Source of the DNA: Pseudovirgaria hyperparasitica
Lineage: Eukaryota
Assembly: GCA_010093815.1 (NCBI GenBank)
Contig: ML996600.1
Length of the DNA stretch: 32,179 nt
Reading direction: 5' to 3' (one strand)
This document shows, piece by piece, positions 6,285 through 32,179 of the stretch; the stretch's first letter is position 1; every line of letters begins with the position of its first letter. The notes beneath the pieces are model-generated. The model saw only the letters and a program-made list of their open reading frames with translations, did not search any database and was not told the DNA's origin. Position numbers and translations under genes: made by a program.

Positions 6285-7181
6285 TCAGGAATCGGTTTGT
6301 GCCTCTCTGATCATCTCTCTGAATAGCAAAAGCTCCTCGTCCAACACCCTCTGGCGCCGCAGTGGTCTGAGAGAATCAAGCCACCAGTGTGGAGACATCA
6401 TCGCGCTACTGAAATCAACAAGTTTTCCATCCAGGTAATTCCTCGCGTACAGGTCTACTGGGTATATTCCCAAATTCCTCAGTTCGTGTAGGTCTCGCTC
6501 CATTTCTTCTGCATTAACGATGGCCTCCTTGGACTCTACGAGCTCTTTCACCAAAGCTCGGAACGGTGGCTTCTCCCGCCAGCTCTTGTCTTCATCTTCT
6601 TCTGGCCAGTCCCAGTCTCGAATCCCAAATTGCTCGCTGAAAATTTCCCCATACTGTTCTGCTGGGAGATAAAGATAGCCGTAGCAGGGCACAGCTAGTC
6701 GGTGTGGATGTTCCCGATGTTGCCGCCTCTCGTCTCTTGTTCGTTGTTCTTGCTGCTGTTGCTCATGGGTTTGCAGCTTTCCGTATGCTCTACACTCTGC
6801 ATAAAATGGATCGGAGTGATAGGTGATTATCTCATCGCTTGCCTTGACCCTATCGGTAGGAAATACCGAAGAGCGTTCTTGCTCGACACTAAAGAACTTG
6901 AACTAGACGTATATTAGGCTTGAACGACAAAGCAGTGATTAAATATACGCGTATTTACTTACGACCTTTAGTGCATACTTCTTCTTACCTATGCGAACCT
7001 TGAAGACATAGCTGTGACCTCCTTCGGCTCCTTCAGATCCGTCCAAGCGCGGCGACGAACTAAGAAGCTTTAGGAAGTGGATATTACCCTTATGCCTCTT
7101 GAATGGCAACAGCTTTGGTCCTTCGCAAGGTGGCAATGGCCTTCTAGGACTATATGCGAGCTGGAAGCGCGCCAGCGACAT
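6285..7181 (-). CDS. FTA2-domain (fungal kinase-like fold) protein, 2 exons (7181-6963, 6902-6285), ~278 aa
   Basis: Exon 1 reads PLPPCEGPKLLPF...GGHSYVFKVRIGKKKYALKV. A 60-nt intron (GTAAGT..CCTAAT..TAG, 6962-6903) joins it in frame to FKFF..DPFYAECRAYGKL..AVPCYGYLYL..RALVKELV..LGIYPVDLYARNYLDGKLVDFSSA, the motif order typical of fungal FTA2-like proteins. Confidence 0.8.
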
Positions 7182-10430: not shown

Positions 10431-11380
10431 GTGTCTCTACACTCATCTAAACTGATAGACGACTGCTTCATACCTTTACACCTACCTAAGCTTATGCGAC
10501 ATGTCTGGATACCGTGTATTCTCTTCAAAGAGGGCCCTCATACTGAAAACGACGACCTACGCGATCCTGATATCATTCTAGCGGAACACAAGAGACGGAC
10601 ACATCAACCGCTATCGCCAAACTGTGAGAAGGTAGAGCTTCCTGGGTTTCCAGTTCCTGTTCTTAGATATAGGCCGGAAAACGCTGTCTATACGGGATTC
10701 CTGGTTGTAGGAGGGGGAGGTGTGTACGATAATTCACATCTACATTCAAAATACCATGCGCATATGGCGAACTCCCTCATGTGCGAACTACTTGTACCTC
10801 AGTATCGTTCAGCGGTTCAGGAGCCCTTCCCAGCGAGCCAGAAAGATATTAGCGCTGCTTTAGACTGCTTTCTAGACTTATTCAGAGGACGAAAGACTAT
10901 ACTCATCGGTGAAGTACATGATAGCTATATAGATCTACCAGGCTAAGCTAACTGGTTATAAAGTCTTTCGGAGGGTCGCTCTTACATAATGCCTTATGTT
11001 GGACTAGATGCGATATCGAGTCTACTTCTCGGCTCGAAGAAAAAGACGAGGATAGGAACGCCGACCGTTTCCTTGCATTCTTCGATATAATCAATCCCAA
11101 TCAAGAGGCAGAGTCATAGTATGCTCAGTGCTCGCCCTCGGCACAGACCCTTCCAGGAAGCCTACCTCCGGCTCAATCTATTTATGCTGAAGCAGAGTGC
11201 ATCTCCCAAGATGTCGTGGCGATGCACCGGATGTGGCACCCTAGCTTAGTTGTTCTCACTCCGGTGCCGGATGTCGATCATGGCTTCCTATTTGGTGAAC
11301 AGGAGGGTGATTTACCGGAGACAGTAAAATTTCTGGCGATGTTTCGACACGGCCCGCCAAGACAGTTGGTAGAACCATGA
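10431..11380 (+). pseudogene. HSL-family alpha/beta hydrolase (Abhydrolase_3-like) with one intron and a premature stop
   Basis: VVGGGG (HGGG-like) and QYRSAVQEPFPA (YRLAPEHPFPA-like) are present. Removing intron 10914-10963 (GTACAT..GCTAAC..AAG) builds the nucleophile elbow GE|SFGG. After an in-frame TAG at 11117-11119 the same frame continues LPP..AEAE..D...PDVDHGF to TGA at 11378-11380. The true start is uncertain. Confidence 0.7.
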
Positions 11381-15479: not shown

Positions 15480-16691
15480 GTGGTGGATCTTACGTCGAAA
15501 CCGGAGCTGGAAGAACGTCGTTTAGCGAAGCGGCGAAGGCTGGCTAAGCAGCGGGTAGAGAACCTCATACTCGATCCTGTATCCATGCCCAAGTCAACGC
15601 CTTTGCCAAGCCCTAGCAGCCAAGTTCCCTCTCCTAGAGCCAGCAACGGTCCTAGACCTGATTTTCCAGAGTGTAACGACAAAGGCGATGGTGCTGAATC
15701 CCCAGGCCTTTACTCCTCAAGACAATCCATCTCTCCTTTTGAAGGAACAGTGAGCGAACAAGATATCAATCCGGATTCAGACAGGCGTGAGAAGAGTAGA
15801 AAAGGCAGACGTAGTGAAGTTGGGGAAAGCCATAGGGACGAACTCAATCAGGTCGACGTGTCCTACGGAGCTTCAGCGACACCTCCTCAGCGACATAACC
15901 CTAGCAATCGTTCGGTCCAGGAGAGACCGCGCGGTCGACCACAGACTCATCTTAAACCACAGAATGGGAGCACAGTCTTTAGGAAGACATCACGACAACT
16001 AACATCACCCCCATCACAACAGCTATCTGGGCCAAGAGCGGATAGCACAGCACGGATCAGTCGGATCGGTCCCCCGCGAACCTTTTCCACAGGAGCAAAG
16101 GCAGCATATGATTCTAGTATCTACCGCGGAACCAGCGACTACGAGTTAATGGATATTGCGCATTACTATTGCGACGTACCGAATGACTCGCCTATTATTA
16201 CAGCAACCGTCTATTGTGCCGACGTAATGTCAGCATTGTATGCAAAGTCATCAGCGCTTAGATGGAACTTGCTTGGTAACAAAGGCGAAGTCATCCGAAC
16301 GATTAAGTTATCATCAGATTCATGGTTGGTAATAGGATACCGGCATGACGATTGCGGTGCGCCAAAATTATGTAGCGGTCGAGGCTCGATGCAGCGAAGC
16401 ACGGATAGGGAGACTGGCCGCCACAGTAATGCCATCAACTATGACGCCGTCCATCCAGAAACATACGGAAACGAGAAGTACGAGGATGAAGATGAAGACG
16501 TGAGCGACAATGGCTATATGCTCTCAGGCAAACGAACACATGTACCGTGGAAAGAGTCGGACGGACAGCGCTTACTGTCGTACAAGGACAAGATGGGCTT
16601 GGACTGGGATGACATAGTTTTTCGTTTCCCAGGTCGGTCGGTGGGCGCCGTAAAACTCCGCTACTACACATTGCACAAGAAGGATTCGTAA
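15480..16691 (+). CDS. Last exon of a low-complexity protein with a C-terminal Myb/SANT domain
   Basis: 403-codon open frame ending in KRTHVPWKESDGQRLLSYKDKMGLDWDDIVFRFPGRSVGAVKLRYYTL (W...L...W..I...FPGRS...K.RY, the Myb/SANT signature), preceded by an acidic patch. Confidence 0.75.
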   Translation: MVDLTSKPELEERRLAKRRRLAKQRVENLILDPVSMPKSTPLPSPSSQVPSPRASNGPRPDFPECNDKGDGAESPGLYSSRQSISPFEGTVSEQDINPDSDRREKSRKGRRSEVGESHRDELNQVDVSYGASATPPQRHNPSNRSVQERPRGRPQTHLKPQNGSTVFRKTSRQLTSPPSQQLSGPRADSTARISRIGPPRTFSTGAKAAYDSSIYRGTSDYELMDIAHYYCDVPNDSPIITATVYCADVMSALYAKSSALRWNLLGNKGEVIRTIKLSSDSWLVIGYRHDDCGAPKLCSGRGSMQRSTDRETGRHSNAINYDAVHPETYGNEKYEDEDEDVSDNGYMLSGKRTHVPWKESDGQRLLSYKDKMGLDWDDIVFRFPGRSVGAVKLRYYTLHKKDS

Positions 16692-17536
16692 GGCTATTGC
16701 GATGTCCTCGACCTACCACTTCCCACCAAGATCGAACTCTCGCCTTGTTGAGGTTGGAGCATTTACGGGTGAAAAGGAGCGTACGGTGGATGCTAAGCTT
16801 TGCTATCTCGTTTTTACTAGATTATGCATAGACTTGGCGCAAAGAGTTATATAACTCCGTCCCACTTCGTCGCTCGTCTCTCTTCAGGTTATGTCGATTT
16901 TGATTAGTTTCAATAGTCGGGCATCTTCACGGTGCTGCCATCTGCCTCTAGGGATTCCTGCTTGAGATCTGGACTTCTTTCTATAGCCTTTTGTGGCATG
17001 ATGCAAATCCCTGGAAATGTTAGGCAAAGCTCGGCTACCAGAAGTTCTATGAATAACGGAGGTCCCGATTCCAGACCCCTGAGGGTGCCAACGGGGTCCG
17101 AAACCGGCCCCGATGCCTAGTCATCCCCTGTCATCGTTTAGTATCTATAGCTTAGTATGGCAGTTGTTCGCTCCTCTACCAACAGGAACTGTTTCTGTAA
17201 GTCGAGCACTCTCCCCATAATACCGCCGAGGATGCGAACGTGAAAGGTTCTTGTGGAAGCACAACGGCTCTGGAGCCATCACTTGCAACTGCATTGAAAA
17301 AGTTTCTTCTCTGTCAAAGCGCCCGCGCCTGCCATTGCCTGACAGCTGCTTTAAAACGACCTTGCGGCGCCAAGTAATGCGTAGAGCTAAATTTAGTCGA
17401 TGAATCAGACTAATCAGCGCTCGTTTACTGGCGCCGATAGAAGTGTGCTCGCCATCTGGGCCAATAAGGCTTGCGGGAATAACGTCGATACTAATCATCA
17501 GCCTTGGCGTCAAGTGCTGTTAGTCCCTATCCTCCA

Positions 17537-17668
17537 TGTAGGAATTTAGGTAGATTTTACGTGGTAAACTTGATTGCCCGTTCTATCTAGTCTACTTATC
17601 TACTATATATACCTAGCCTACGCTGAGTAAGATTTGAGTAATGGGGATTACCTAATATGAATCCCACA
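17537..17668 (-). repeat. 3' LTR (132 bp)
   Basis: TGTAGGAAT...ATCCCACA on the plus strand, identical to 26612-26743 except C17651 vs T26726. It is adjacent to the PPT. Confidence 0.97.
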
Positions 17669-17680
17669 TCTTCCCCCTCC
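17669..17680 (-). other. Polypurine tract
   Basis: Minus-strand GGAGGGGGAAGA lies immediately 5' of the 3' LTR. Confidence 0.9.
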
Positions 17681-17936
17681 TGATTATACGAGCTCCTGCG
17701 AGGCGTCAAAGACGATTGACGGAGTCTAACTCATATAATAAAGAGAGGTAGGCGTGTAAAATCTCTTCAACGCTAGGCCATATCCAGTAACACGTCGCGT
17801 AAGGGGGGGTGGTCCGAGCTTGTTTTGGCGCTGAATAGTCACCTTCACCATTGACGTATCCTGCCAACTTCAACCTCACATTACTTGACCATTTCGCCTT
17901 TTTCTTGACCTTTTTCTATACCAAACTCGTTTGACA

Positions 17937-20179
17937 ATGTCTGAAAACACTGCTGAAACTCCTGCGCGCTCAGAAATTACCCCAATTGATGTTGTGATCT
18001 CAGGTATGTGAACTTCAGCTTCACCTTTTCTTTTTAACTTGACCTTCCTACAGCGGACATGGTTATAAATGATGACCTTCGTCATGCCTTTTCGCGAGGT
18101 GGGATAGACGAGAGGTCGCTTGACGACATGATGGCAGAACATGCCCGCGCTCCCGATAGTAGGTCAAGTTCTTTAGTAGTTCTAGCCTAGGCTGACCTAT
18201 ACAGTTCGTGAGAGCTATTTAGAGATGGCTCATGGCTACCTGTATCCACGGGGTCCTTGGGGTTCGCCATTTTTCCGCAATCCAGGCCTAGAAAACGAGG
18301 CTTCGAATCAACTGAATGAAGAGAACAACCAGGCCCTTGGAGCTGAGGTTCCACAGGTTAAGATCTTGGTCCCTGTGATTCCGCAGGAGTTGGCAATCGC
18401 CATTGACGAGACTGTTCCTGAAACAGAAGGTAGTTTCGCTCAGTCCTTCTCTTTTCAAAAACTTTATTAACCTGTGTGGTTCCTATAGGTCAAGTTATAG
18501 ATCACGATTCTGCGCCAACTGATCTTGACGAGCCTTTTGAAACTCCTACCAAGCCTAACAGGTTCGAGAATCTTTCAGATGACTCTGACGATGTCTTTGA
18601 TCCTGAAAAGGAAGGAGCTTTGAGCTCTGGGCTATCAGACCTTGACAGCGATGCGATAATGGAAATTGACGAGCTTGATGAAGCAGTTGCTCTCAAGGCA
18701 GGCAAGAAAGGTGAATCTCTAAGCCTTAATTGGGTTTTCAATTTCCTAATATCATCATAGGCCTTCGTCCTAAGGCACCTAGGACTCCTAAGAAGGTCCG
18801 CAAGGCCGTGAGGACTCTGTCAAAGTTGTTTGACAGCCCTAAAACTCGCTCCATGACTTCCTCATTGGCCTTAACAGGTCTCGGAAGTCCTAGCAAGATC
18901 GTGAAGAAGGCTCCTATCAAGCGTAAGGGGTCTGCAGCTTCTCGCAAGGTCAGCGCGGCATCAGAGACTGCGGCAACTGAACTTGACAGCTATGGCGGTG
19001 CCGAGATCATGGTGAAAGGCCGGTCAGGCCTCAGTGTTCATCCTGACTACTACTTCTTTTCGGGGAAATCGGCAGAGTTCGCGCAGTGGTTGGCCCGTCG
19101 GCGTAGGTCTTCTTCCTGTTAATTGCCTTTGACGGTCAGCTAACTTGACCTAGGGGAGATGTTCTCGGATCCTCCCATCTCAGTGCCGTTCTGCCAGGAA
19201 TTCGTTGATGGCTTGATCAAGGCGTATACTGGCGGTCAACATGCCTCGATTCCGAAGGATCTGCTTCCGTTTTGTATGACGGATAAGTTTGATGACTGCT
19301 GCTATCCCCAGGATATCGCAGCAACAGTAGGACAGATCTTTCGGGATCCCGAGAAACGACTGGATGGGAAGTATCCGTATACCATTCCTGCCGTCCTAGG
19401 CATGATGGCTCGTGGCGCGTTCTGGCACTTCGGTGATAGCGCCTGTGGATCCTGTTCTGCCGGCAAAGGTGTCTTCAAGGAGTGTGTGCAGCTTTTTCCC
19501 AATGGGTTCCTACTGTTTGAAGGTACTTGTTTGAATTGTTTCCACCAAGGAAATGGGAAATTCTGCAGCATGTCACGTCGTAAGTCACTCCCTTATGTTG
19601 TCAAAGGCCTTTGACGGGGCTAATTGTGTATCCACAGTATACCGGGGCGAGCGTAACGTCATTGAGAAGCTTCAGCGTGCCGAACAGTCTTCTTTTGTGG
19701 AAAAGACCAAGTCCACTGGCAGGTATTCGGCTGCCCAGCTTCGTCAAAAGAAGTTGTCAGGTCTCAAGGAGACCAGGTCAAACTCTGCGGCTGGTCCTTC
19801 GCTCGTGAGTCAGGTTTTCTATCTCGTGTAATCTCTAGCTAATTAAAAGGTCACAGCCATGATAGAATGGATGTATCACGGCGGTCCAGAGGTTCTCGTT
19901 CCTGGCTATGATGATATCATGCCTCCCGACCCGAGTATCATCCCCACTCGTCCTATACAGGACATAGATGACGAAGGTCTTCCGCTTGACGAGGCTGTTG
20001 AGGGTTGGTTTGCTCTTCCGACAAACGCGTTTGGCGAGGCTGGTCGTACGCCTCAAGGGTTGCCATGCCGGTTCCTGATCGAGGATGGCATGCCCAAGGA
20101 GAGTAAGAAGGTCCTGGTGAAGTTCGCGAAGAATATGAACTTCAGTCGTCGTAAATCCGCTTTGAGGGTCCAGGGCTAG
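17937..20179 (+). CDS. Antisense accessory gene inside the retrotransposon, 8 predicted exons, ~627 aa, with a Cys-rich DUF3716-like module
   Basis: Predicted exons are 17937-18003, 18054-18158, 18205-18429, 18489-18710, 18761-19102, 19154-19579, 19638-19804 and 19850-20179. Introns are 45-59 nt GT-AG, most with GCTRAY/CCTAAT-type branch points, and they join the six short plus-strand ORFs into one frame. Exon 6 has ACGSCSAGKGVFKECV...GTCLNCFHQGNGKFCS. Intron 7 boundaries are ambiguous. Confidence 0.85.
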
Positions 20180-20448
20180 GTCGACGACGTCTCTTTTGTG
20201 TTGATACCCCTTCTCCTTGAGCGTCAAAGGGCGTTGACGGCTTTTCTTTTGTGTCTGGTTGGGTTGCGGTTCTTAGGTAGCGATTTTAGACTTGAATAGT
20301 ATCATCACAAGTCCACATCTTCTTTCTTTGACCTCCTGGTGATTCCTATGGCTCGTCAACCTTCGTTGACGGCCATGTGTATGAGTAATGAGTGAATGGG
20401 AGATCAATAATGGTGTGTACATAGGAGATATTCAAGGAAAGACTGAGG

Positions 20449-23400
20449 TTAGTTGTAATCTAAGCTTTCTTGTAACAACTTAGAAGGTAATATCTTTTTC
20501 CTTAGGGAGTACCTCTCTCCCTCTGATCTGTCAACTCGTCTTGACGCGCTGGCTACAGCCGCTTGGGTTTCTCTATTGCGTTCATCCGTATAGGATCGCT
20601 TTCTTTTCCGCATATGAGGTTTGCTTTCTACAAGGTCCCTTATAGGGACGTCCGAGTCTATTAGAGGTTGTTCGGTCACTTCGTCAACCTCTTTTGGCAC
20701 TTCTTCAGTGTCTGTATCTATATCCATACTCGTAGGATTCTCATTTTCAGTTTGGACATTCTTGTCTAAGTCCATTCGTATATCATCAAACTCGTCTCCT
20801 GAGCTTGTTTCTTCAGGCAATTCATCCTGTATCGGTTCTGCAGTGGCTTCCTCTGCCATGTCAATCTCGTTTGACGGGTCATCTGCTGTATTCTCGTTTA
20901 TCGTTTGGGCTTCCTCTGCCCTTGGAGCATCGTAGCTTCTTTCGATGTTGACTATCGGCGGTTGCATCGCTCCGCTGTTCTCACCTTGTTCTTCCGGTGT
21001 GTCTCTTGGTTCGTCAAAGACGATTGGCACTGGTGCGGCCGACGTAGCTGTAGTAGCTTTTTGTTTACGTCGATTTTTCGCATCGGTAAGCCTGATTTGT
21101 CGCGCGATATTTGCGTCTATCGAGCTCTCCCCTACCAAGAACGAACGTACGCCCTCGTACGTCAACTCTCGTTGACTCCGTAGCTGTTGCAGCCGGTTCC
21201 ACTCCTTTTTAGGAAGGGAGGATAGAGTCGTCCAGTGTAGGGTCGGTTTTTCTTTCTCTAAAACCTTCTCGATGTCTGGTGAGTGAGGTGCCACTTGGTT
21301 CCGGATTTCCTCGGACATCTGTGAGTCAATTTCCTGTCTAGTCCAGAAGTCCTCTAGCTTGTCAATGCCCCGGGCTGTTATTAATCTATTGCCGTGTACA
21401 AGGTGCCGTAAGATACGCCCGTTCGGTGTTTCGAGGGCATATGTTCCCAAAGGATGTTGCATGTGAACCTTGTATGGACCTAAGTAGTTCGTTTTGAACT
21501 TCGTTTTCTGCTCGTTCTTTAGCAAAACGATTTGACCGACAGGTAGTCGCGCCTGATCTTCAGGTTTGAGTCGAGTCGGGTCTATGAGGTCTCGGCGGGC
21601 GGCTTCCACAAGCAGCTCACTAAGCGCTAGTGTTCTGGCGTGTTGGACTTTCTTGACTCGCTTGATGAGTTCGTCAAAGGACATTGACTCATCCTTTTCC
21701 CCAGGAATGTTCCCTGGTAAGTTGGGGTGTTGTCCATACACCAGATAATATGGACTAACTCCCATACTTCTATGACGGCGAATCCTTGTGGCGAAAACGG
21801 CGGCTGGTAGGTACGTGTCCCAGTTTGTCACCAGCTCGCCTATACACATACGGGTAAGTATGCCTCCTAATGTTCCATTGAGGCGCTCGACTTTCCCGTT
21901 TGTGCGAGGGTGATAAGGGGTTGTGAGCTTGTGTTCTGTCTTGAGGATGCGTAGCAATGCGCCAACGACTCTTGACAGAAACTGTTGACCATTGTCTGAG
22001 GTTAGTGCGGCGGGAGGTCCGAAGTCTATGAAGATCTTCTCATAAATGAACCTTGCGACGGACTCCGCAGTCGCCTCAGGGACTGCCTGTGCAATAGGCC
22101 ATCCCGTTGTGTAGTCAATTGCTGTTATCACCCAGCTATTGCCGTTGTGTGTGGTGGGGAGTACGCCTATAAAGTCGATACCCCATTCTTCAAAGGGTGC
22201 TCGGCGTGCGACCCTATGAAACTGTCTCTCATGTTGTGGATTTGGTGGCACTCGTTGCGCCAATTGACATTGACGGCAGTTGCGAGCGACCACTTCCACG
22301 TCTTTCTTCATTCTAAACCACCAGCCTTGTTTTTCTAGGGCTCCTAGTAGTCCGGGCCACATGAAGTGACCGAATTGACGGTGTATTGTTTCTACCAGCG
22401 AAGTACGGTATTGTTCGGGGATGTACGGCGCTGAGTTTTCCGACAAATCTTCTTGACTATCATCAAAATCCCATAGCTTGTGTCGTAGTTTACCTTCGTG
22501 GTCCAGGCGTAGCCGGGACAGGATTTCGGGGGAGACTTTTAGCACATGCTCTGTCGGTTCCGCTCCTTTAAGGAACTCAATGATTTGGGCGACGAGAGTG
22601 TGTTCGTCAACCTTAGTTGACGGCATTGCGGAGATCTCGCCTTGAAAGTCCGGCCTCCTACTGATGGCGTCAGGTACCACTGCCCTGGATCCTGGGCGAT
22701 ATTTTATGTCTAGATCGAAGCTTCCGAACTCATCAATCCATCTACCTACACGGCCTCCTTGTTCCTTGGCAGTCTTGAGGAACTGTAGGCTATGGTGGTC
22801 GGTGAGGATCGTGGTCTTCTTCGTTCCTAGCAAGTATCCCCAAGTGCGTAGGGCGTGTTTGATGGCAAGAAGTTCTTTTTCGTGCACTGGGTAGTTGAGC
22901 TCGGCGCCGTTGAGCTTCCTCCCGTCAAACGCGATTGGCTGATTCTGCTTGTCGGCGTCTTCCTGGCAGATCACCATACCGATCGCGTAGTTGCTCGCAT
23001 CCGTTTCGATGCAGAAGGGCTTTGTTTCATCTGGCTGAGCCAGGACTGGCTCGGAACATAGGGCATTCTTAAGCGTTTTGAAGGCAAACGCTGTTGACAG
23101 TGTCCATCTAATGGGCCTATACTTCTGCTTTCGAATGAGCGGGTCTGCTTCTTTAAGAAGGTCTGTCAAAGGTGCCGCGATGCTTGTAAATCCCCTAATG
23201 TACCTTCGGTAGTAGTTCGCTAGGCCCAAGAACTGTCGAACTTCGCTAACGTTCGTAGGTTCCGGCCATTCGCGGATGGCCTGAATCTTATCCTTCATAG
23301 GACGGAGTTGTCCTCGCGAGACGTGGTGTCCGCAGAAGTCAACTTCGGCCTGGCCGAAGCTACACTTCTCCGGATTGGCGAGCAGGCGATATTCGCGGAG

Positions 23401-24804
23401 TAAGGCAAGTACTTTTGACAGCACTCTTGCGTGTTCCTCCATGGTTTCGGAAAAGATAATGATATCGTCCAAGTATACAACCACGGATTTGTGTAATAGA
23501 GGTTGAAGGACTCTGTTCATCATCTTTTGGAATGTGGCAGGTGCGTTTGACAGACCGAACGGCATTACCTTGAACTCGTATTTGCCGTAGATCGTGTTGA
23601 AGGCGGTTTTCGGGACGTCTTCATTGTCAACACGTACTTGCCAGAATCCTGAGGTCAAATCCATCTTGGTAAACACGGTTGACTGGCCGAAGGCACGTAG
23701 GCACTCATCAATGCGTGGGAGAGGTGTCGTATCTTTACGCGTGAGTGTGTTGAGTGCCCTATAATCGATACACATTCGCCATTTGCCTCCGGGCTTGGGC
23801 ACGAAAAGTACTGGGCTGCCCCAGGCACTTCCTGATTCTTGAATCAGGCCTCGCTTGATTAGCTCCTGTATCTGTCTCTGTTGTTCTGCGATCTGTTCTA
23901 AGGAGAGACGATAGGCTGCGTTGTTGATAGGTCGGCCATCTCCTGTGTCTATTTTGTGGTCCCATTGTCTTGAAGGAGGTAGCCCTTCGGGCAGGTCTTC
24001 CTTGAAAACGTCCTTATACTTCGTCAAAACGGGTTGCAGTATTGGGTCAGGTGCATGCGGTACAGGAGGAGTGTCCTTTCTAACGAACCACATTACACCC
24101 TGTTCACAGCCGTTCGGGTATTGTTTCCGTGCTTGACTAGCAGTGAGGACGTTTAGCACTTGTTCTCCTTGTAAGTCAATGTCGATTGACGCAGGAATCC
24201 CTTTTAGAAGGTACTCCTTGGTTCGTCCTCGGGCTGCTGGCTTCTTAATTACTAGGGAATGAGACCTCCATGAGATATCGGGGTCCCATTCGTAGAGCCA
24301 TTCGTATCCTAGAATCAGATCGTAGCCTTTGAGGTCGAGCACTCTCGCGGAGACTTCGCAAGTGAAGCTTTCCATGCGTAGGGGGATCTTCACAACTTCT
24401 CGACTTGTCATGAGGGGTCCTGACGGAAGTTTGACACGTATTGCGGGAGCAGGTTGTGGCACCAGCTTCAGACGCCTGGCAACCTTCGTTGACATATACG
24501 TTCTATCAGCCCCACAGTCGATGAGTACTGAAACCTTCTGAGGGTGGACTTCTCCTGCGTAAGCTTTGAGTTCTAGCAACTGTCTGCCGATGGAGTTTAG
24601 TTGACAGAGGCGGTCGTCGACGGCGTGCGTCAACTCCTCTTGACACTGGCGAGCACTCTCTAGCGATTCGCAAAGCGCGTTAATGTGCTCGTAGTCCCAT
24701 GTGTTTACCTCCTTTTCATCGGAATTGTCAGTGCAGAAGCTCTCTTCGTCGCTCGTGGTGTGTTCTGTGTCCACTACGGGCGACTGGCTTTTGGGGGCTC
24801 TTCG
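20449..24804 (-). CDS. pol: Pol polyprotein (aspartic protease, RT, RNase H, integrase with GPY motif, acidic tail)
   Basis: Motifs are LIDCGAD (PR); WRMCIDYR, MPFGL and YLDDII (RT); ETDAS and HEKELLAI (RH); HRQFGH..CRQC, GIDF, SDNG and VERLN (IN); and YLGPYKV. The frame opens after TGA at 24807-24805 and has no ATG before the protease active site, so it is probably reached by frameshifting. Confidence 0.97.
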   Translation of the reverse strand, partial: RRAPKSQSPVVDTEHTTSDEESFCTDNSDEKEVNTWDYEHINALCESLESARQCQEELTHAVDDRLCQLNSIGRQLLELKAYAGEVHPQKVSVLIDCGADRTYMSTKVARRLKLVPQPAPAIRVKLPSGPLMTSREVVKIPLRMESFTCEVSARVLDLKGYDLILGYEWLYEWDPDISWRSHSLVIKKPAARGRTKEYLLKGIPASIDIDLQGEQVLNVLTASQARKQYPNGCEQGVMWFVRKDTPPVPHAPDPILQPVLTKYKDVFKEDLPEGLPPSRQWDHKIDTGDGRPINNAAYRLSLEQIAEQQRQIQELIKRGLIQESGSAWGSPVLFVPKPGGKWRMCIDYRALNTLTRKDTTPLPRIDECLRAFGQSTVFTKMDLTSGFWQVRVDNEDVPKTAFNTIYGKYEFKVMPFGLSNAPATFQKMMNRVLQPLLHKSVVVYLDDIIIFSETMEEHARVLSKVLALLREYRLLANPEKCSFGQAEVDFCGHHVSRGQLRPMKDKIQAIREWPEPTNVSEVRQFLGLANYYRRYIRGFTSIAAPLTDLLKEADPLIRKQKYRPIRWTLSTAFAFKTLKNALCSEPVLAQPDETKPFCIETDASNYAIGMVICQEDADKQNQPIAFDGRKLNGAELNYPVHEKELLAIKHALRTWGYLLGTKKTTILTDHHSLQFLKTAKEQGGRVGRWIDEFGSFDLDIKYRPGSRAVVPDAISRRPDFQGEISAMPSTKVDEHTLVAQIIEFLKGAEPTEHVLKVSPEILSRLRLDHEGKLRHKLWDFDDSQEDLSENSAPYIPEQYRTSLVETIHRQFGHFMWPGLLGALEKQGWWFRMKKDVEVVARNCRQCQLAQRVPPNPQHERQFHRVARRAPFEEWGIDFIGVLPTTHNGNSWVITAIDYTTGWPIAQAVPEATAESVARFIYEKIFIDFGPPAALTSDNGQQFLSRVVGALLRILKTEHKLTTPYHPRTNGKVERLNGTLGGILTRMCIGELVTNWDTYLPAAVFATRIRRHRSMGVSPYYLVYGQHPNLPGNIPGEKDESMSFDELIKRVKKVQHARTLALSELLVEAARRDLIDPTRLKPEDQARLPVGQIVLLKNEQKTKFKTNYLGPYKVHMQHPLGTYALETPNGRILRHLVHGNRLITARGIDKLEDFWTRQEIDSQMSEEIRNQVAPHSPDIEKVLEKEKPTLHWTTLSSLPKKEWNRLQQLRSQRELTYEGVRSFLVGESSIDANIARQIRLTDAKNRRKQKATTATSAAPVPIVFDEPRDTPEEQGENSGAMQPPIVNIERSYDAPRAEEAQTINENTADDPSNEIDMAEEATAEPIQDELPEETSSGDEFDDIRMDLDKNVQTENENPTSMDIDTDTEEVPKEVDEVTEQPLIDSDVPIRDLVESKPHMRKRKRSYTDERNRETQAAVASASRRVDRSEGERYSLRKKILPSKLLQESLDYN
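24748..24795 (-). other. Predicted -1 ribosomal frameshift signal (slippery C_CCA_AAA plus downstream hairpin)
   Basis: Heptamer 24795-24789 is in the gag frame, and a -1 slip gives CCC AAA AGC in the pol frame. Four nt downstream lies the stem GTCGC-c-CGT-a-GTG/CAC-c-ACG-a-GCGAC (24784-24748), which contains the gag stop. Confidence 0.75.
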
Positions 24805-26051
24805 TCAAAGACGCTTGCCGTGTCTCCCTCTGCGGTGACGTGGGCCAGTTTGCTTGGAGTCGGATTTTCGGGGCAGAATCTTGAGATGTGTCCTGTTTTC
24901 TTGCAGATAAAGCATTCTCGAGTCTCGTTAAGCGTTCTTGACGAATTTCCTTGGTATCTACCACGGCCTCGGCCTCGACTCCAGCCTCTGCCGCGGCCTC
25001 GGCTGTTCCACTGGCGCTTTACGAAGGCGTGGAGCTTGCCTTCGTCTCCAGAGAAGTCGCCTAGGTCATCATCGCGGGTGTATAAATCCTCAGGAGGCTC
25101 GAACTCTTCGGGTTCTTCGTCCTCGTCTGGATTATACATGGCATTAAGGCGATGATTAGCTTCCCGTCTGTGGTATTCGCTCTTGGAGTGGGTGTATAGG
25201 GCTTCTTCTAGCCTTTTTACCCATGGGCACCAGTCCCCTAGCATCTGAGGAGGAAAGGGCTGCTTTTCGATTTCTCGTTGAACCTCTGATTTGAGGGCAC
25301 TTAGTATCCTGCGTTGTATCTCGTATTCTGTAGGCATGGGTCGTAGTAGTCGAGCTTTCTCGACAATGACGTCGATGAGCCTCGAGGCAGACCCATAACG
25401 ATGTTGACTTAGGTTCTCCCATTCCTTTCGGCGTTGTTCTGGGCGATTGGTCGAGATGTACGTCTTGCGTATGACGTCTAGGAAGTCTCCTAGAGTTTGA
25501 GGACTACCCGGGCTATTACGGCCGCGTGCCTCCATGAGGCTACGCCAAAGGGTACGGACATGTTTTGAGGTATATGTCCCGCAGATTTGTAGTTTCTCAA
25601 AATCAGGTATAGCCTCTTGGCGTTCCACTGACTCTACGGTATTAATCCATTCCTGGATAGATAGGCACCATTCCTCGCAGGCGTCGTCCCTGATTTCTCC
25701 TGAGTATACTTCGGGGGCTCGAAGAGGGATGCGGCCTCTGCGTGGGGGCGCAACCGTTCCTGAGCGGCCGGGGTTATTGAGGAGGAGGTTGTCAAAGTCT
25801 CTTGCCAGTTCCTCCCGGGTGACGTGATCGTTCCTCACCTGTGACTCGAGTCGGTTGGCACATATGTTGATAAGTGCCACTGTACGAGCGTCTCCAGTGA
25901 GGTCTCTCGTGGCCGGATCGGCATCGAAGAGGGCGTTAAGCACGTCAACGGTTATTGACGGTGCGTTACGAGCGCGTCCTGTGCTCTGGGGAGCGGTTGC
26001 TCCATCCATGGGGACGTCGCCGTCACGATCAGGGTTCTGGGGAAGAGACAT
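24774..26051 (-). CDS. gag: Gag protein with RG-rich segment and CCHC zinc knuckle
   Basis: 425-aa ATG ORF directly upstream of pol, with PEVYSG, a capsid-like helical region, RGRGRGWSRGRGRGR and CFICKKTGHISRFC (CX2CX4HX4C). Confidence 0.95.
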   Translation of the reverse strand: MSLPQNPDRDGDVPMDGATAPQSTGRARNAPSITVDVLNALFDADPATRDLTGDARTVALINICANRLESQVRNDHVTREELARDFDNLLLNNPGRSGTVAPPRRGRIPLRAPEVYSGEIRDDACEEWCLSIQEWINTVESVERQEAIPDFEKLQICGTYTSKHVRTLWRSLMEARGRNSPGSPQTLGDFLDVIRKTYISTNRPEQRRKEWENLSQHRYGSASRLIDVIVEKARLLRPMPTEYEIQRRILSALKSEVQREIEKQPFPPQMLGDWCPWVKRLEEALYTHSKSEYHRREANHRLNAMYNPDEDEEPEEFEPPEDLYTRDDDLGDFSGDEGKLHAFVKRQWNSRGRGRGWSRGRGRGRYQGNSSRTLNETRECFICKKTGHISRFCPENPTPSKLAHVTAEGDTASVFDEEPPKASRP

Positions 26052-26600
26052 TTTGGTACAACTTGTTAGAGACAGGGGAATTCTGAGGTGGTGATCATCT
26101 TCCGAGTTGGAATTTGGTCGTCAACTTATGTTGACGAGTGGTTGGGAGGTACATTGCGGGTACAGGGAGCGTCAATGAAAAAAAATTCGTTTCCTTAGTC
26201 TTTGCTCGTTTTGTGATATGTCACTACCCGTTGTGACTATTGAACTGGTCGTCAAAGTTTGTTGCCGTAATTTGATTCTCTGAATAGTTGATGTTTCGGC
26301 AGGGATATCCCATCGTAGGCATGACTCGTTCTTATGGCGCGCCTGTATCCGCTGAGTTGTTGGAATTGTCGTCAAACGTTGTTGCCGTAATTTGTTTTTC
26401 CGGGACTATGGCATGTCCCTTCGTGGTAGTGTTTTTCCTGTTGGACTATAGGTTCCTTTGCCGTTGTCTTCGGCGGAGGTGTTTAATGTCGTGGGTGTCA
26501 ATTGCGTTTGACGAGTTGCCTCGTGTAAGGGGAGATATAGCTACCCCTTAGGAGGGGTCGCCGAGGCGACGGCCTCCCTAGGAGGACAAAAACCAGCTTT

Positions 26601-26609
26601 CAGCTACCA
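26601..26609 (-). other. Primer binding site, tRNA-iMet type
   Basis: Minus-strand TGGTAGCTG starts 2 nt after the 5' LTR. It is complementary to a tRNA 3' end ...CAGCUACCA and shares TGGTAGC with the iMet PBS of Ty1/Ty3. Confidence 0.75.
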
Positions 26610-26611
26610 GA

Positions 26612-26743
26612 TGTAGGAATTTAGGTAGATTTTACGTGGTAAACTTGATTGCCCGTTCTATCTAGTCTACTTATCTACTATATATACCTAGCCTACGCTG
26701 AGTAAGATTTGAGTAATGGGGATTATCTAATATGAATCCCACA
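26612..26743 (-). repeat. 5' LTR (132 bp)
   Basis: Direct repeat of 17537-17668 (131/132 identical), containing a TATATATA box and followed on the minus strand by the PBS. Confidence 0.97.
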
Positions 26744-27318
26744 TGAGGTAGCAGAGATGGTCACATGACAGAGCACTTTGGACGTCGATTTAGGCTAGTG
26801 GGCCCTGCGCTGAATCTACTGCAGGGAAAGTGAGACCGTTGATCGCCTACTGTAGCCAAGACGCAGGGGCTAGATTTGCGCAGCCCGCAGATTCTCCGAT
26901 AAGGCTTGCGCTGTCTAAAACGGTATATTAGACCCTGAGAAGCTCAACTCAAGAAATTCGTAGGCTCTGGCTTTGAATTAGGATTTGAGCACCGCGAAGA
27001 CAGATCTTGGACTGCAGCTCTCGGGATAGACTGTTCATACGCCAATCTACTGTGCATTGTAATTCTAAGTACACTGCTTAGATATAGTGGATGTTATCGG
27101 TCTCCCAAAGCAAGCCGTCGGTAGCAACGATTCCTTAATTCAGAGATTATAGGCTACGCAGAAGGTTCACGCAGATAAGATTAAGCGTGGGTATAGCTTA
27201 GACCGTTAGCTATCTATCCCGAGAGTATCATGCTCAGGCTGACGTTGTGGAATTTATTATCTGGTGTTGAAATTCTGCATCTCGGTACACAGGGAATCTC
27301 GCGACGTAGGGAGGGACG

Positions 27319-30897: not shown

Positions 30898-32179
30898 GTT
30901 CGTCAACCTTAGTTGACGGCATTGCGGAGATCTCGCCTTGAAAGTCTGGCTTCCTACTGATCGCGTTAGGTACTACTGCCTTGGATACTCGGCCTCCTTG
31001 TCCTTGGCGGTCTTAAGGAACTGTAGGCTGTGGTGATCGGTGAGGATCGTGGTCTTCTTCGTTACTAGCAAGTATCCCCAAGTTCGTAGGGCGTGTTTGA
31101 TAGCAAGAAGTTCTTTTTCGTGTACTGGGTAGTTGAGCTCGGCGCCATTGAGATTTCTCCCGTCAAACGCGATTGGCTGGTTCTGCTTGTCGGCATCTTC
31201 TTGGCAGATCACCATGCCGATCGCGTAGTTGCTTGCGTCCGTTTCAATGCAGAAGGGTTTCGTTTCATCTGGCTGAGCAAGGACTGGCTCGGAACATAGG
31301 GCATTCTTAAGGGTTTTGAAGGCAAACGCTGTTGACAGCGTCCATCTGATGGGCCTGTACTTCTGCTTTCGGATGAGCGGGTCTGCTTCTTTGAGAAGGT
31401 CTGTCAAAGGTGCTGCGATGCTTGTAAATCCCCTAATGTACCTTCGGTAGTAGTTTGCTAGGCCAAGGAACTGTCGAACTTCGCTAACGTTCGTGGGTTC
31501 CGGCCATTCACGGATAGCCTGAAACTTATCTTTCATAGGACGAAGTTGTCCTTGCGAGACGTGGTGTCCGCAGAAGTCAACTTCAGCCTGGCCGAAGCTA
31601 AATTTCTCCGGATTGGCAAGCAAACGATATTCGCGGAGTAAGACAAGTACTTTTGACAGCACTCTCACATGTTCTTCCATGGTTTCGGAAAAGATAATGA
31701 TATCGTCCAAGTACACAACCACGGATTTGTGTAATAGAGGTTGAAGGACTCTGTTCATCATCTTTTGGAATGTGGCAGGTGCGCTTGACAGACCGAACGG
31801 CATTACCTTAAACTCGTATTTGCCGTAGACCGTGTTGAAAGCGGTTTTCGGGACGTCTTCATTGTTAATACGTACTTGCCAGAATCCTGAGGTTAAGTCC
31901 ATCTTGGTAAACACTGTTGACTGGCCGAAGGCACGTAGGGAAGACTCGAGTCGGTTGGCACATATGTTAATAAGTGCCATCGTACGAGCGTCTCCAGTGA
32001 GGTCTCTCGTGGCCGGATCAGCACTGAGAAGTGCGGTAAGCACGTCAACATTCATTGACGGAGCGTTACGGGCGCGTCCCGTACTTTGGGGAGCGGTTGC
32101 TCCGTCCATAGGGACGTCGCCGTCGCGATCGGGGTTCTGGGGAAGAGACATCTCGGTATAACTTGTTAGGGAAAGGGGA
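30898..32179 (-). mobile_element. Internally deleted, 3'-truncated second copy of the same Ty3/Gypsy family (continues past the window edge)
   Basis: 30898-31939 matches ~22602-23701 (RT-RH) and 31943-32179 matches ~25843-26079 (gag 5' end and leader). There is a further ~58-bp deletion and a 1-bp deletion near 30990-31003. Confidence 0.95.
30973..32151 (-). pseudogene. In-frame Gag(N-terminal 70 aa)-RT/RNase H fusion ORF created by deletion
   Basis: MSLPQNPDR...ANRLES-S-LRAFGQSTVF...YLDD...ETDAS...LTDHHSLQFL, 392 aa. It lacks the capsid core, zinc knuckle, protease, RT N-terminus and integrase. Confidence 0.85.

Follow-up and report, generated by a model that had tools for sequence, protein, structure and literature searches.

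A spliced antisense gene for a DUF3716 protein within the periodic palindrome array of a Ty3/Gypsy retrotransposon in Pseudovirgaria hyperparasitica

Several long terminal repeat (LTR) retrotransposons carry, besides gag and pol, an open reading frame (ORF) on the opposite strand. As far as the available excerpts of the reports go, such antisense ORFs lie between pol and the 3' LTR in the plant elements Grande, RIRE2 and Retand and in Boty of Botrytis and Sclerotinia (PMC7264820, PMC11963269). The Grande antisense protein is described there as nuclear and expressed from its own promoter, the Retand protein TRP28 is predicted to bind DNA, and a regulatory role has been proposed (PMC7264820, PMC11963269). 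In fungi, the antisense gene of the Boty-like Ty3/Gypsy elements of Botrytis cinerea and Sclerotinia is named brtn, and a Monilinia transcript with a BRTN match has been reported, again according to partial texts (PMC7264820, PMC8365987, PMC4227169, PMC5987419). Here, we analyze a 32,179-nucleotide stretch of Pseudovirgaria hyperparasitica DNA (assembly GCA_010093815.1, contig ML996600.1; hereafter the window), in which a 9.2-kb Ty3/Gypsy (Metaviridae) LTR retrotransposon on the minus strand holds a multi-intron gene on the opposite strand, the product of which contains a DUF3716 domain. The brtn gene was reportedly the subject of Zhao et al. 2011 (Virology 417:248). To our knowledge, no antisense accessory gene of an LTR retrotransposon has an established function.

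The element shares with the Boty-like ones, as these are described in the excerpts, that a fungal Ty3/Gypsy retrotransposon has an extra opposite-strand gene between pol and the 3' LTR. However, the Boty-like pol is described with a chromodomain, whereas a Pfam search found none in the present pol; moreover, no BRTN-named protein is among the 17 database matches of exon 6, the exon that encodes the DUF3716 domain. With Grande, RIRE2 and Retand it has in common the position and orientation of the antisense ORF and a long region between pol and the LTR: here, 2.8 kb separate the pol stop codon from the polypurine tract (PPT), and the gene lies on the plus strand, opposite gag-pol. In contrast to what the excerpts describe for the plant elements, the host belongs to another kingdom, the protein has DUF3716 in place of TRP28, the gene has seven RNA-verified spliceosomal introns, and an element-wide palindrome array is present. 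A preliminary description of this locus, made from its letters, had cited antisense ORFs of plant elements as precedents; these stand, but they are not confined to plants, since the fungal Boty-like elements carry antisense brtn.

DUF3716 has been met in a fungal mobile element of a different class. In the available part of the report, REP9 of Zymoseptoria tritici is a class II transposon of the IS3EU-like type that has 43-bp terminal inverted repeats and contains two DUF3716 genes, and over-expression of REP9-1, a protein of 193 residues, induced the other three REP9 genes (PMC8232023). Both REP9 and the element studied here thus carry DUF3716 as cargo, and the role of REP9-1 is like the one proposed below; compared by description only, REP9 differs in being a DNA transposon with short proteins, as opposed to an LTR retrotransposon. 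The presence of DUF3716 in class I as well as class II fungal elements points to its recurrent use by mobile DNA and offers a lead to the function of this Pfam domain of unknown function. A further lead comes from host genes: Neurospora crassa NCU05718, which has no annotated DNA-binding domain, binds double-stranded TTAGGG directly and specifically (PMC4650311), and the Fusarium graminearum DUF3716 protein PSC58 is called its orthologue (PMC10776026). According to the portions of these papers at hand, NCU05718 and PSC58 are single-copy host genes that bind telomeric TTAGGG through an unmapped domain, the family being DUF3716, as here, on the word of PMC10776026. An antisense accessory gene is already known in kind; the periodic palindrome array with its embedded gene is the most surprising part of the locus. 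In the literature searched, subscription journals being outside its scope, neither a DUF3716 gene of an LTR element nor a periodic palindrome array of this sort was found to be described. The combination of transcript-verified exons, a recognizable domain and 34 regularly spaced candidate target sites in the element makes function directly testable.

Four public runs contain the window. X1 and X2, both DNA-like, share one sample and are possibly the runs from which the assembly was made; X3 and X4 share another sample, which belongs to a second study. No run listed as RNA contains the window. Contigs of the four runs were compared over positions 17000-27200, and the transcript evidence for the gene is confined to X3 and X4 contigs that lack the introns. 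In both of these runs, one contig skips seven stretches with GT..AG ends on the plus strand, whereas the joined forms have a depth of 0 in the DNA runs X1 and X2. No X3 or X4 contig covers the introns (depth 0 at 19815), and the bin depths equal the depth of the spliced contig multiplied by the covered fraction. Since the X3 and X4 contigs skip the introns and the joined forms are missing from X1 and X2, we infer that these two runs represent cDNA and record a spliced plus-strand mRNA; unspliced RNA of the region, the genomic RNA of the element included, would then be too rare in these runs to assemble. The contigs show their strand through the GT..AG splice signals only and give no start position. 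The gene is real: it is expressed and spliced, and both its position and its transcripts bear out the earlier proposal of an antisense multi-intron gene within an LTR-bounded Ty3/Gypsy element, between the pol stop and the PPT and 3' LTR.

The eight exons first proposed, from the ATG at 17937, form an open frame of 627 codons; this ATG is the first to follow the LTR, and 48 nt upstream of it the frame contains a stop. All seven predicted introns are GT..AG introns of 45-59 nt, each with a YTRAY branch motif. The contigs of X3 and X4 show six of them exactly as predicted (18004-18053, 18159-18204, 18430-18488, 18711-18760, 19103-19153 and 19580-19637) and place the acceptor of the seventh, predicted at about 19805-19849, 7 nt further on. 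The acceptor at 19856 is the expected choice: the only branch motif of intron 7 has its A at 19842, which leaves 14 nt to 19856 and 7 nt to 19849, and the distance in the other six introns is 9-18 nt. As a consequence, exon 8 starts with CCA TGA, the main frame stops at 19860-19862, and the observed transcript encodes a product of 519 amino acids instead of 627, with the last 109 predicted codons out of frame. The 519 codons are stop-free over seven exons, six of which have coding-like codon usage in the correct frame only. The end of the X4 contig, at 20311, is possibly the 3' end of the transcript. Introns 1 to 6 are all in phase 1, and exons 2 to 6 are multiples of three (105, 225, 222, 342 and 426 nt); the sequence AACTTGACC around the branch site is common to introns 1 and 5.

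The frame predicted for exon 8 persists as an ORF of 106 codons. Under a codon model trained on exons 1 to 7 alone, it scores 0.25 bits/codon, compared with -0.07 to 0.39 for the real exons and negative values for the other frames of the region; this score is reached by 0.16% of 1896 stop-free flank windows and by none of 5000 shuffles. The frame thus looks coding, and it could stem from a minor splice form, from re-initiation or from the recent loss of a C-terminal part. A minus-strand ORF at 19835-20227 was rejected as a gene, as it has no Pfam match and a lower codon score.

The features that the preliminary description had read in the protein were all located in the 519-residue product: an acidic block at residues ~111-190, a basic S/T/P-rich block resembling a nuclear localization signal (NLS) at ~191-260, and a cysteine module formed by C418, C421, C431, C446, C449 and C458. 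The suggested likeness to DUF3716 was substantiated by Pfam PF12511, which matches residues 95-139 of exon 6 over profile positions 13-58 of 59 with 32.4 bits (gathering threshold 22; E 9e-8). When exon 6 was compared with 1.84 billion protein representatives, 17 matches were obtained at E<=0.001, the best with 47.9 bits, all over the DUF3716 part; those with names come from Hortaea, Phyllosticta, Aureobasidium, Periconia and Friedmanniomyces, and exon-6 homologues of "longer" lengths were not found. The nearest Atlas clusters are 90-100% DUF3716. Exon 6 was aligned with 15 of the 17 matches, two proteins of >1700 residues with repeated matches being left out, and PF12511 is matched by all 16 aligned sequences. 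Among these, C97, C110, C125, C128 and C137 (exon 6 numbering) are invariant and C100 is conserved in at least 90%, and the spacing is C-x2-C-x9-C-x14-C-x2-C-x8-C. The AlphaFold2 model has a predicted local distance difference test (pLDDT) score of >80 over residues 61-140 of exon 6 and places a short helix at both C-x2-C motifs, and a model of the domain alone is poor (pLDDT 60).

Zn(II)2Cys6 regulators such as Gal4 bind as dimers to two short half-sites separated by a fixed spacer. The DUF3716 module resembles them in its six cysteines and their order (C-x2-C, C, C-x2-C, C), but its spacers are longer and the half-site here is GTCAA, as opposed to CGG. No match to the Pfam family Zn_clus was found in exon 6 at E<=1, DUF3716 being the sole family listed, and the domain profile had no match among PDB sequences at E<=10. 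In Phyllosticta capitalensis, the proteins P0006/P0018 and P0009/P0024 represent two different DUF3716 proteins with accession numbers two apart; both are encoded on one Logan contig of 9130 nt, and the paired genes recall REP9-1 and REP9-2 of Zymoseptoria.

The gene lies within an array of palindromes of the form GTCAA-N6-TTGAC, often extended to CGTCAA..TTGACG. Exact copies number 17 in the window against 0.34 expected, a count that none of 100 shuffles reaches; 15 are in the element and two in a partial second copy. When one mismatch is allowed, there are 34 in the element, five in the second copy (30902-32059) and none in the other 21.7 kb, and with up to two mismatches, 46, seven and six, respectively. 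Within the gene, exons 3, 4, 5 and 7 contain sites, as do introns 5 and 6. Half-sites occur at 8.5/kb in the gene, 9.2/kb in the whole element and 1.2-1.6/kb in the flanks. The preliminary description had noted the same palindrome in the gene, gag, pol and the leader, and the signal proves far stronger than claimed.

The palindromes are regularly spaced. Twenty-one of the 33 intervals measure 115-185 bp, none is shorter than 100 bp, and most others lie close to 300 or 480 bp. At 158 bp, phase coherence reaches its maximum (R = 0.67), with 27 of the 34 sites no more than 25 bp from the lattice. This value was reached by none of 2000 uniform and none of 2000 minimum-distance placements; 128 of 2000 shuffles of the observed intervals did reach it, a result that identifies the quantized spacing itself as the signal. 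The spacing of about 158 bp runs through the gene, pol, gag and the leader, in coding and noncoding parts alike, and seven of the eight gene-side sites are 1-40 bp off a lattice derived solely from the sites in pol, gag and the leader. For comparison, 158 bp is close to the nucleosome repeat length of fungi.

Several features suggest how the palindromes may be read. Among the perfect inverted repeats of the 5-N6-5 type in the element, 15 of 31 have a GTCAA arm, the only arm that is enriched, and only one of 12 two-mismatch sites is compensatory; a hairpin reading is not favored on these grounds. Moreover, between site 25944 and its second-copy counterpart at 32044, both arms are kept and three of the six spacer bases differ, and the palindromes in pol occupy two reading frames. 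Conserved arms, a variable spacer and the use of two pol frames fit a sequence read by a protein rather than a generic hairpin or a repeated peptide.

On balance, and by a small measure, we lean toward the view that this is an expressed, spliced antisense accessory gene belonging to the Ty3/Gypsy element and that its DUF3716 protein is probably a nuclear self-regulator. The 519-residue protein, with its basic NLS-like block, would enter the nucleus, its putatively metal-binding DUF3716 module would bind DNA in a sequence-specific manner, and the protein would regulate its own element, with the GTCAA-N6-TTGAC palindromes as candidate targets. The earlier suggestion of a nuclear zinc-binding DNA or chromatin factor is plausible by analogy with the other DUF3716 proteins discussed above. 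Introns that are antisense to the genomic RNA are not spliced from it and so survive retrotransposition, which accounts for the persistence of the seven introns here.

We also consider, as a fairly unlikely extension, that the element writes a CGTCAA-N6-TTGACG mark through itself about every 158 bp and encodes the reader of this mark, the DUF3716 protein. Leader, gag, pol and spacers would all be subject to the mark, as would the antisense gene in its exons and its introns. The protein would bind it as a dimer via a six-cysteine module of the binuclear type and would serve to phase chromatin, to activate the element or to protect it against silencing.

Several observations weigh against an accessory gene with a regulatory product, including those given below in connection with host capture and decay. 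X3 and X4 represent one sample of one study, and their library type is not on record. Their contigs begin 3.4 kb or more to the left of 17000 and continue without a break across the 3' LTR and into the gene; given this continuity with the left flank, the transcript may arise by read-through and not from a promoter of its own. Read-through or overlapping transcripts connect the antisense gene with its left neighbor, a Myb-like gene (15480-16691, plus strand). At the protein level, no match among the 1.84 billion representatives reaches 1e-10, so exon 6 has no close relative there, and no structural match for the domain was found with Foldseek against the PDB (E<=0.001) or in a wide VIA-align search (Z>=2). 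Furthermore, in the excerpt at hand, the status of NCU05718 as a putative DUF3716 carrier derives from a statement about its orthologue. For the 106-codon ORF, no homologue was found among the representatives and no usable match in the Atlas.

An unlikely alternative is that one copy of the element took up a host gene, by nested insertion or transduction, which has no role in the biology of the element; its DUF3716 protein would then be of use to the fungus or to neither. Consistent with such an event, the greater part of the gene (18023-19727) has a single copy at >=90% identity in X1 and X2, no relative was found beyond the domain, and the seven introns suggest a genomic rather than a cDNA origin. 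In addition, a related contig shares 17683-17775 and is unlike the window beyond both ends. This variant is a diverged relative of the PPT-proximal region of the element elsewhere in the genome, and its divergence past 17775 may mean that it is a relative without the gene. The same diverged variant, with 48 bases within 17706-17755 replaced by TTT, occurs in all four runs. On the other hand, the palindrome and half-site densities of the gene are like those of the element, about six times those of the flanks, in exons and introns, with the same spacing of about 158 bp. Recently captured host DNA would not carry the palindromes and the spacing of the element; the gene thus looks integral to it and not freshly captured, and the earlier suggestion to this effect is strengthened. 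Parts of the gene also recur: in X1, part of 19728-20068 is covered by a further contig that has about double the depth of single-copy sequence and lacks 1 nt at 19815, and X2 contains a diverged loose end at 19820, which indicates that at least the 3' part of the gene is present elsewhere in the genome. Finally, the gene occupies the usual place of antisense accessory ORFs, as far as the excerpt describes it (PMC7264820).

It is likewise improbable, in our estimation, that the gene is a decaying relic, a former accessory gene shortened by a shifted splice site and transcribed by read-through from its neighbor or the LTR. The intron 7 acceptor does put the coding-like 106 codons out of frame, which could be a sign of decay, the RNA-like contig extends without interruption from the left flank, and the element has no target-site duplication. 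Against decay stand the open frame of 519 codons over seven exons, in which all six domain cysteines are kept, and the clean removal of seven introns. Both gag and pol, as well as the LTRs, which are 99% identical, are also intact, and the copy is therefore young. We regard it as very unlikely that the antisense RNA acts in place of the protein, by pairing with genomic RNA over its 3' 2.4 kb and tuning the element through double-stranded RNA or transcriptional interference, since a long open frame, a recognized domain and coding-like usage in six of seven exons would not be needed for this, even though the transcript overlaps a long 3' region of the element, spliced antisense retroelement transcripts are described in excerpts on TART (PMC1636488) and on retroviral antisense genes (PMC11963269), and roles of the RNA and the protein are not mutually exclusive.

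Table 1. Coordinates of the antisense gene, the palindromes and the host element in the window
Feature	Position	Strand	Remarks
Region upstream of gene	17669-17936	+	TATA-like TATAATAAA near 17736; CT-rich leader with TTGACC repeats; palindrome at 17705
Exon 1	17937-18003	+	Start codon at 17937
Exon 2	18054-18158	+	Joints 18003/18054 and 18158/18205 in X3 and X4
Exon 3	18205-18429	+	X3 and X4 contigs
Exon 4	18489-18710	+	Acidic block; X3 and X4 contigs
Exon 5	18761-19102	+	Basic S/T/P-rich NLS-like block; palindrome at 18819
Exon 6	19154-19579	+	DUF3716 at about 19438-19572
Exon 7	19638-19804	+	X3 and X4 contigs
Intron 7 as observed	19805-19856	+	52 nt; joint 19804/19857, unambiguous in X3 and X4
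Last exon (8)	19857-20311	+	Begins CCA TGA; X4 contig ends at 20311
106-codon ORF	19859-20179	+	Frame of predicted exon 8; ATG overlaps main stop (ATGA)
Palindrome array	17705-26512	.	34 sites with <=1 mismatch
Palindromes in gene (n=7)	18392, 18514, 18819, 18972, 19118, 19600, 19743	.	Two exact and five one-mismatch sites in 2.2 kb
3' LTR	17537-17668	-	132 nt, TG..CA
PPT	17670-17681	-	AGGAGGGGGAAG on minus strand; adjoins 3' LTR; from sequence
pol	20449-24774	-	Open; protease, reverse transcriptase, RNase H and integrase (Pfam); stop codon 20449-20451
gag	24774-26051	-	Open frame
Candidate primer-binding site	26603-26609	-	TGGTAGC; 1-2 nt from 5' LTR, on its inner side
5' LTR	26612-26743	-	132 nt, TG..CA
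Second, partial element copy	30898-32179	-	Matches 22602-23701 and 25843-26079; blastn identity 88.6-93.6%

The host element had been called intact. This holds for the internal parts, but not for the insertion signature: no target-site duplication of 4-6 bp was found, the flanks being CTCCA and TGAGG. The right flank is itself repeated in X1 and X2, so recombination or nesting at the insertion site is possible. The LTR pair forms a direct repeat of 134 nt (17536-17669 and 26611-26744) with a single mismatch. The candidate primer-binding site putatively matches the initiator tRNA; the window contains no tRNA genes and no Rfam families. In gag, a zf-CCHC knuckle scores 19.4 bits, just under the Pfam cutoff of 20.8. 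The pol reading frame, a -1 frame, shares 28 nt with gag, and its Pfam domains follow the Ty3/Gypsy order, with protease at residues 74-160, reverse transcriptase at 325-485, RNase H at 557-683 and integrase at 785-969.

Within the protein collection searched, the closest pol is encoded on a metagenome contig; this protein, P0027, has 62% identity over residues 300-1000 and, like the present pol, a long C-terminal tail. In the element, this tail of about 470 residues follows the integrase (20452-21870, minus strand) and lacks Pfam domains; parts of it are conserved in P0027, for example around VGESSID and the terminal Y-x-LR. No related DNA was found in metagenome contigs for the pol tail and P0027 or in viral contigs for pol and exon 6.

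The second copy has an internal deletion of 2141 bp (equivalent to 23701 to 25843) and ends at the equivalent of 22602, and it is therefore uninformative on the presence of the gene. Its deletion joint recurs in X1, a DNA run, and in X3, which is RNA-like, and the occurrence in X3 suggests that the deleted form is transcribed. Between the second and the full copy, 50 of 60 substitutions are transitions; as these lack a CpA bias, repeat-induced point mutation is not supported as the source of the differences. Two matches to host genes lie to the left of the element, one to the kinetochore subunit FTA2 (6288-6692, minus strand; 60.5 bits) and one to a fragment of an alpha/beta hydrolase (10431-10943, plus strand; 28 bits).

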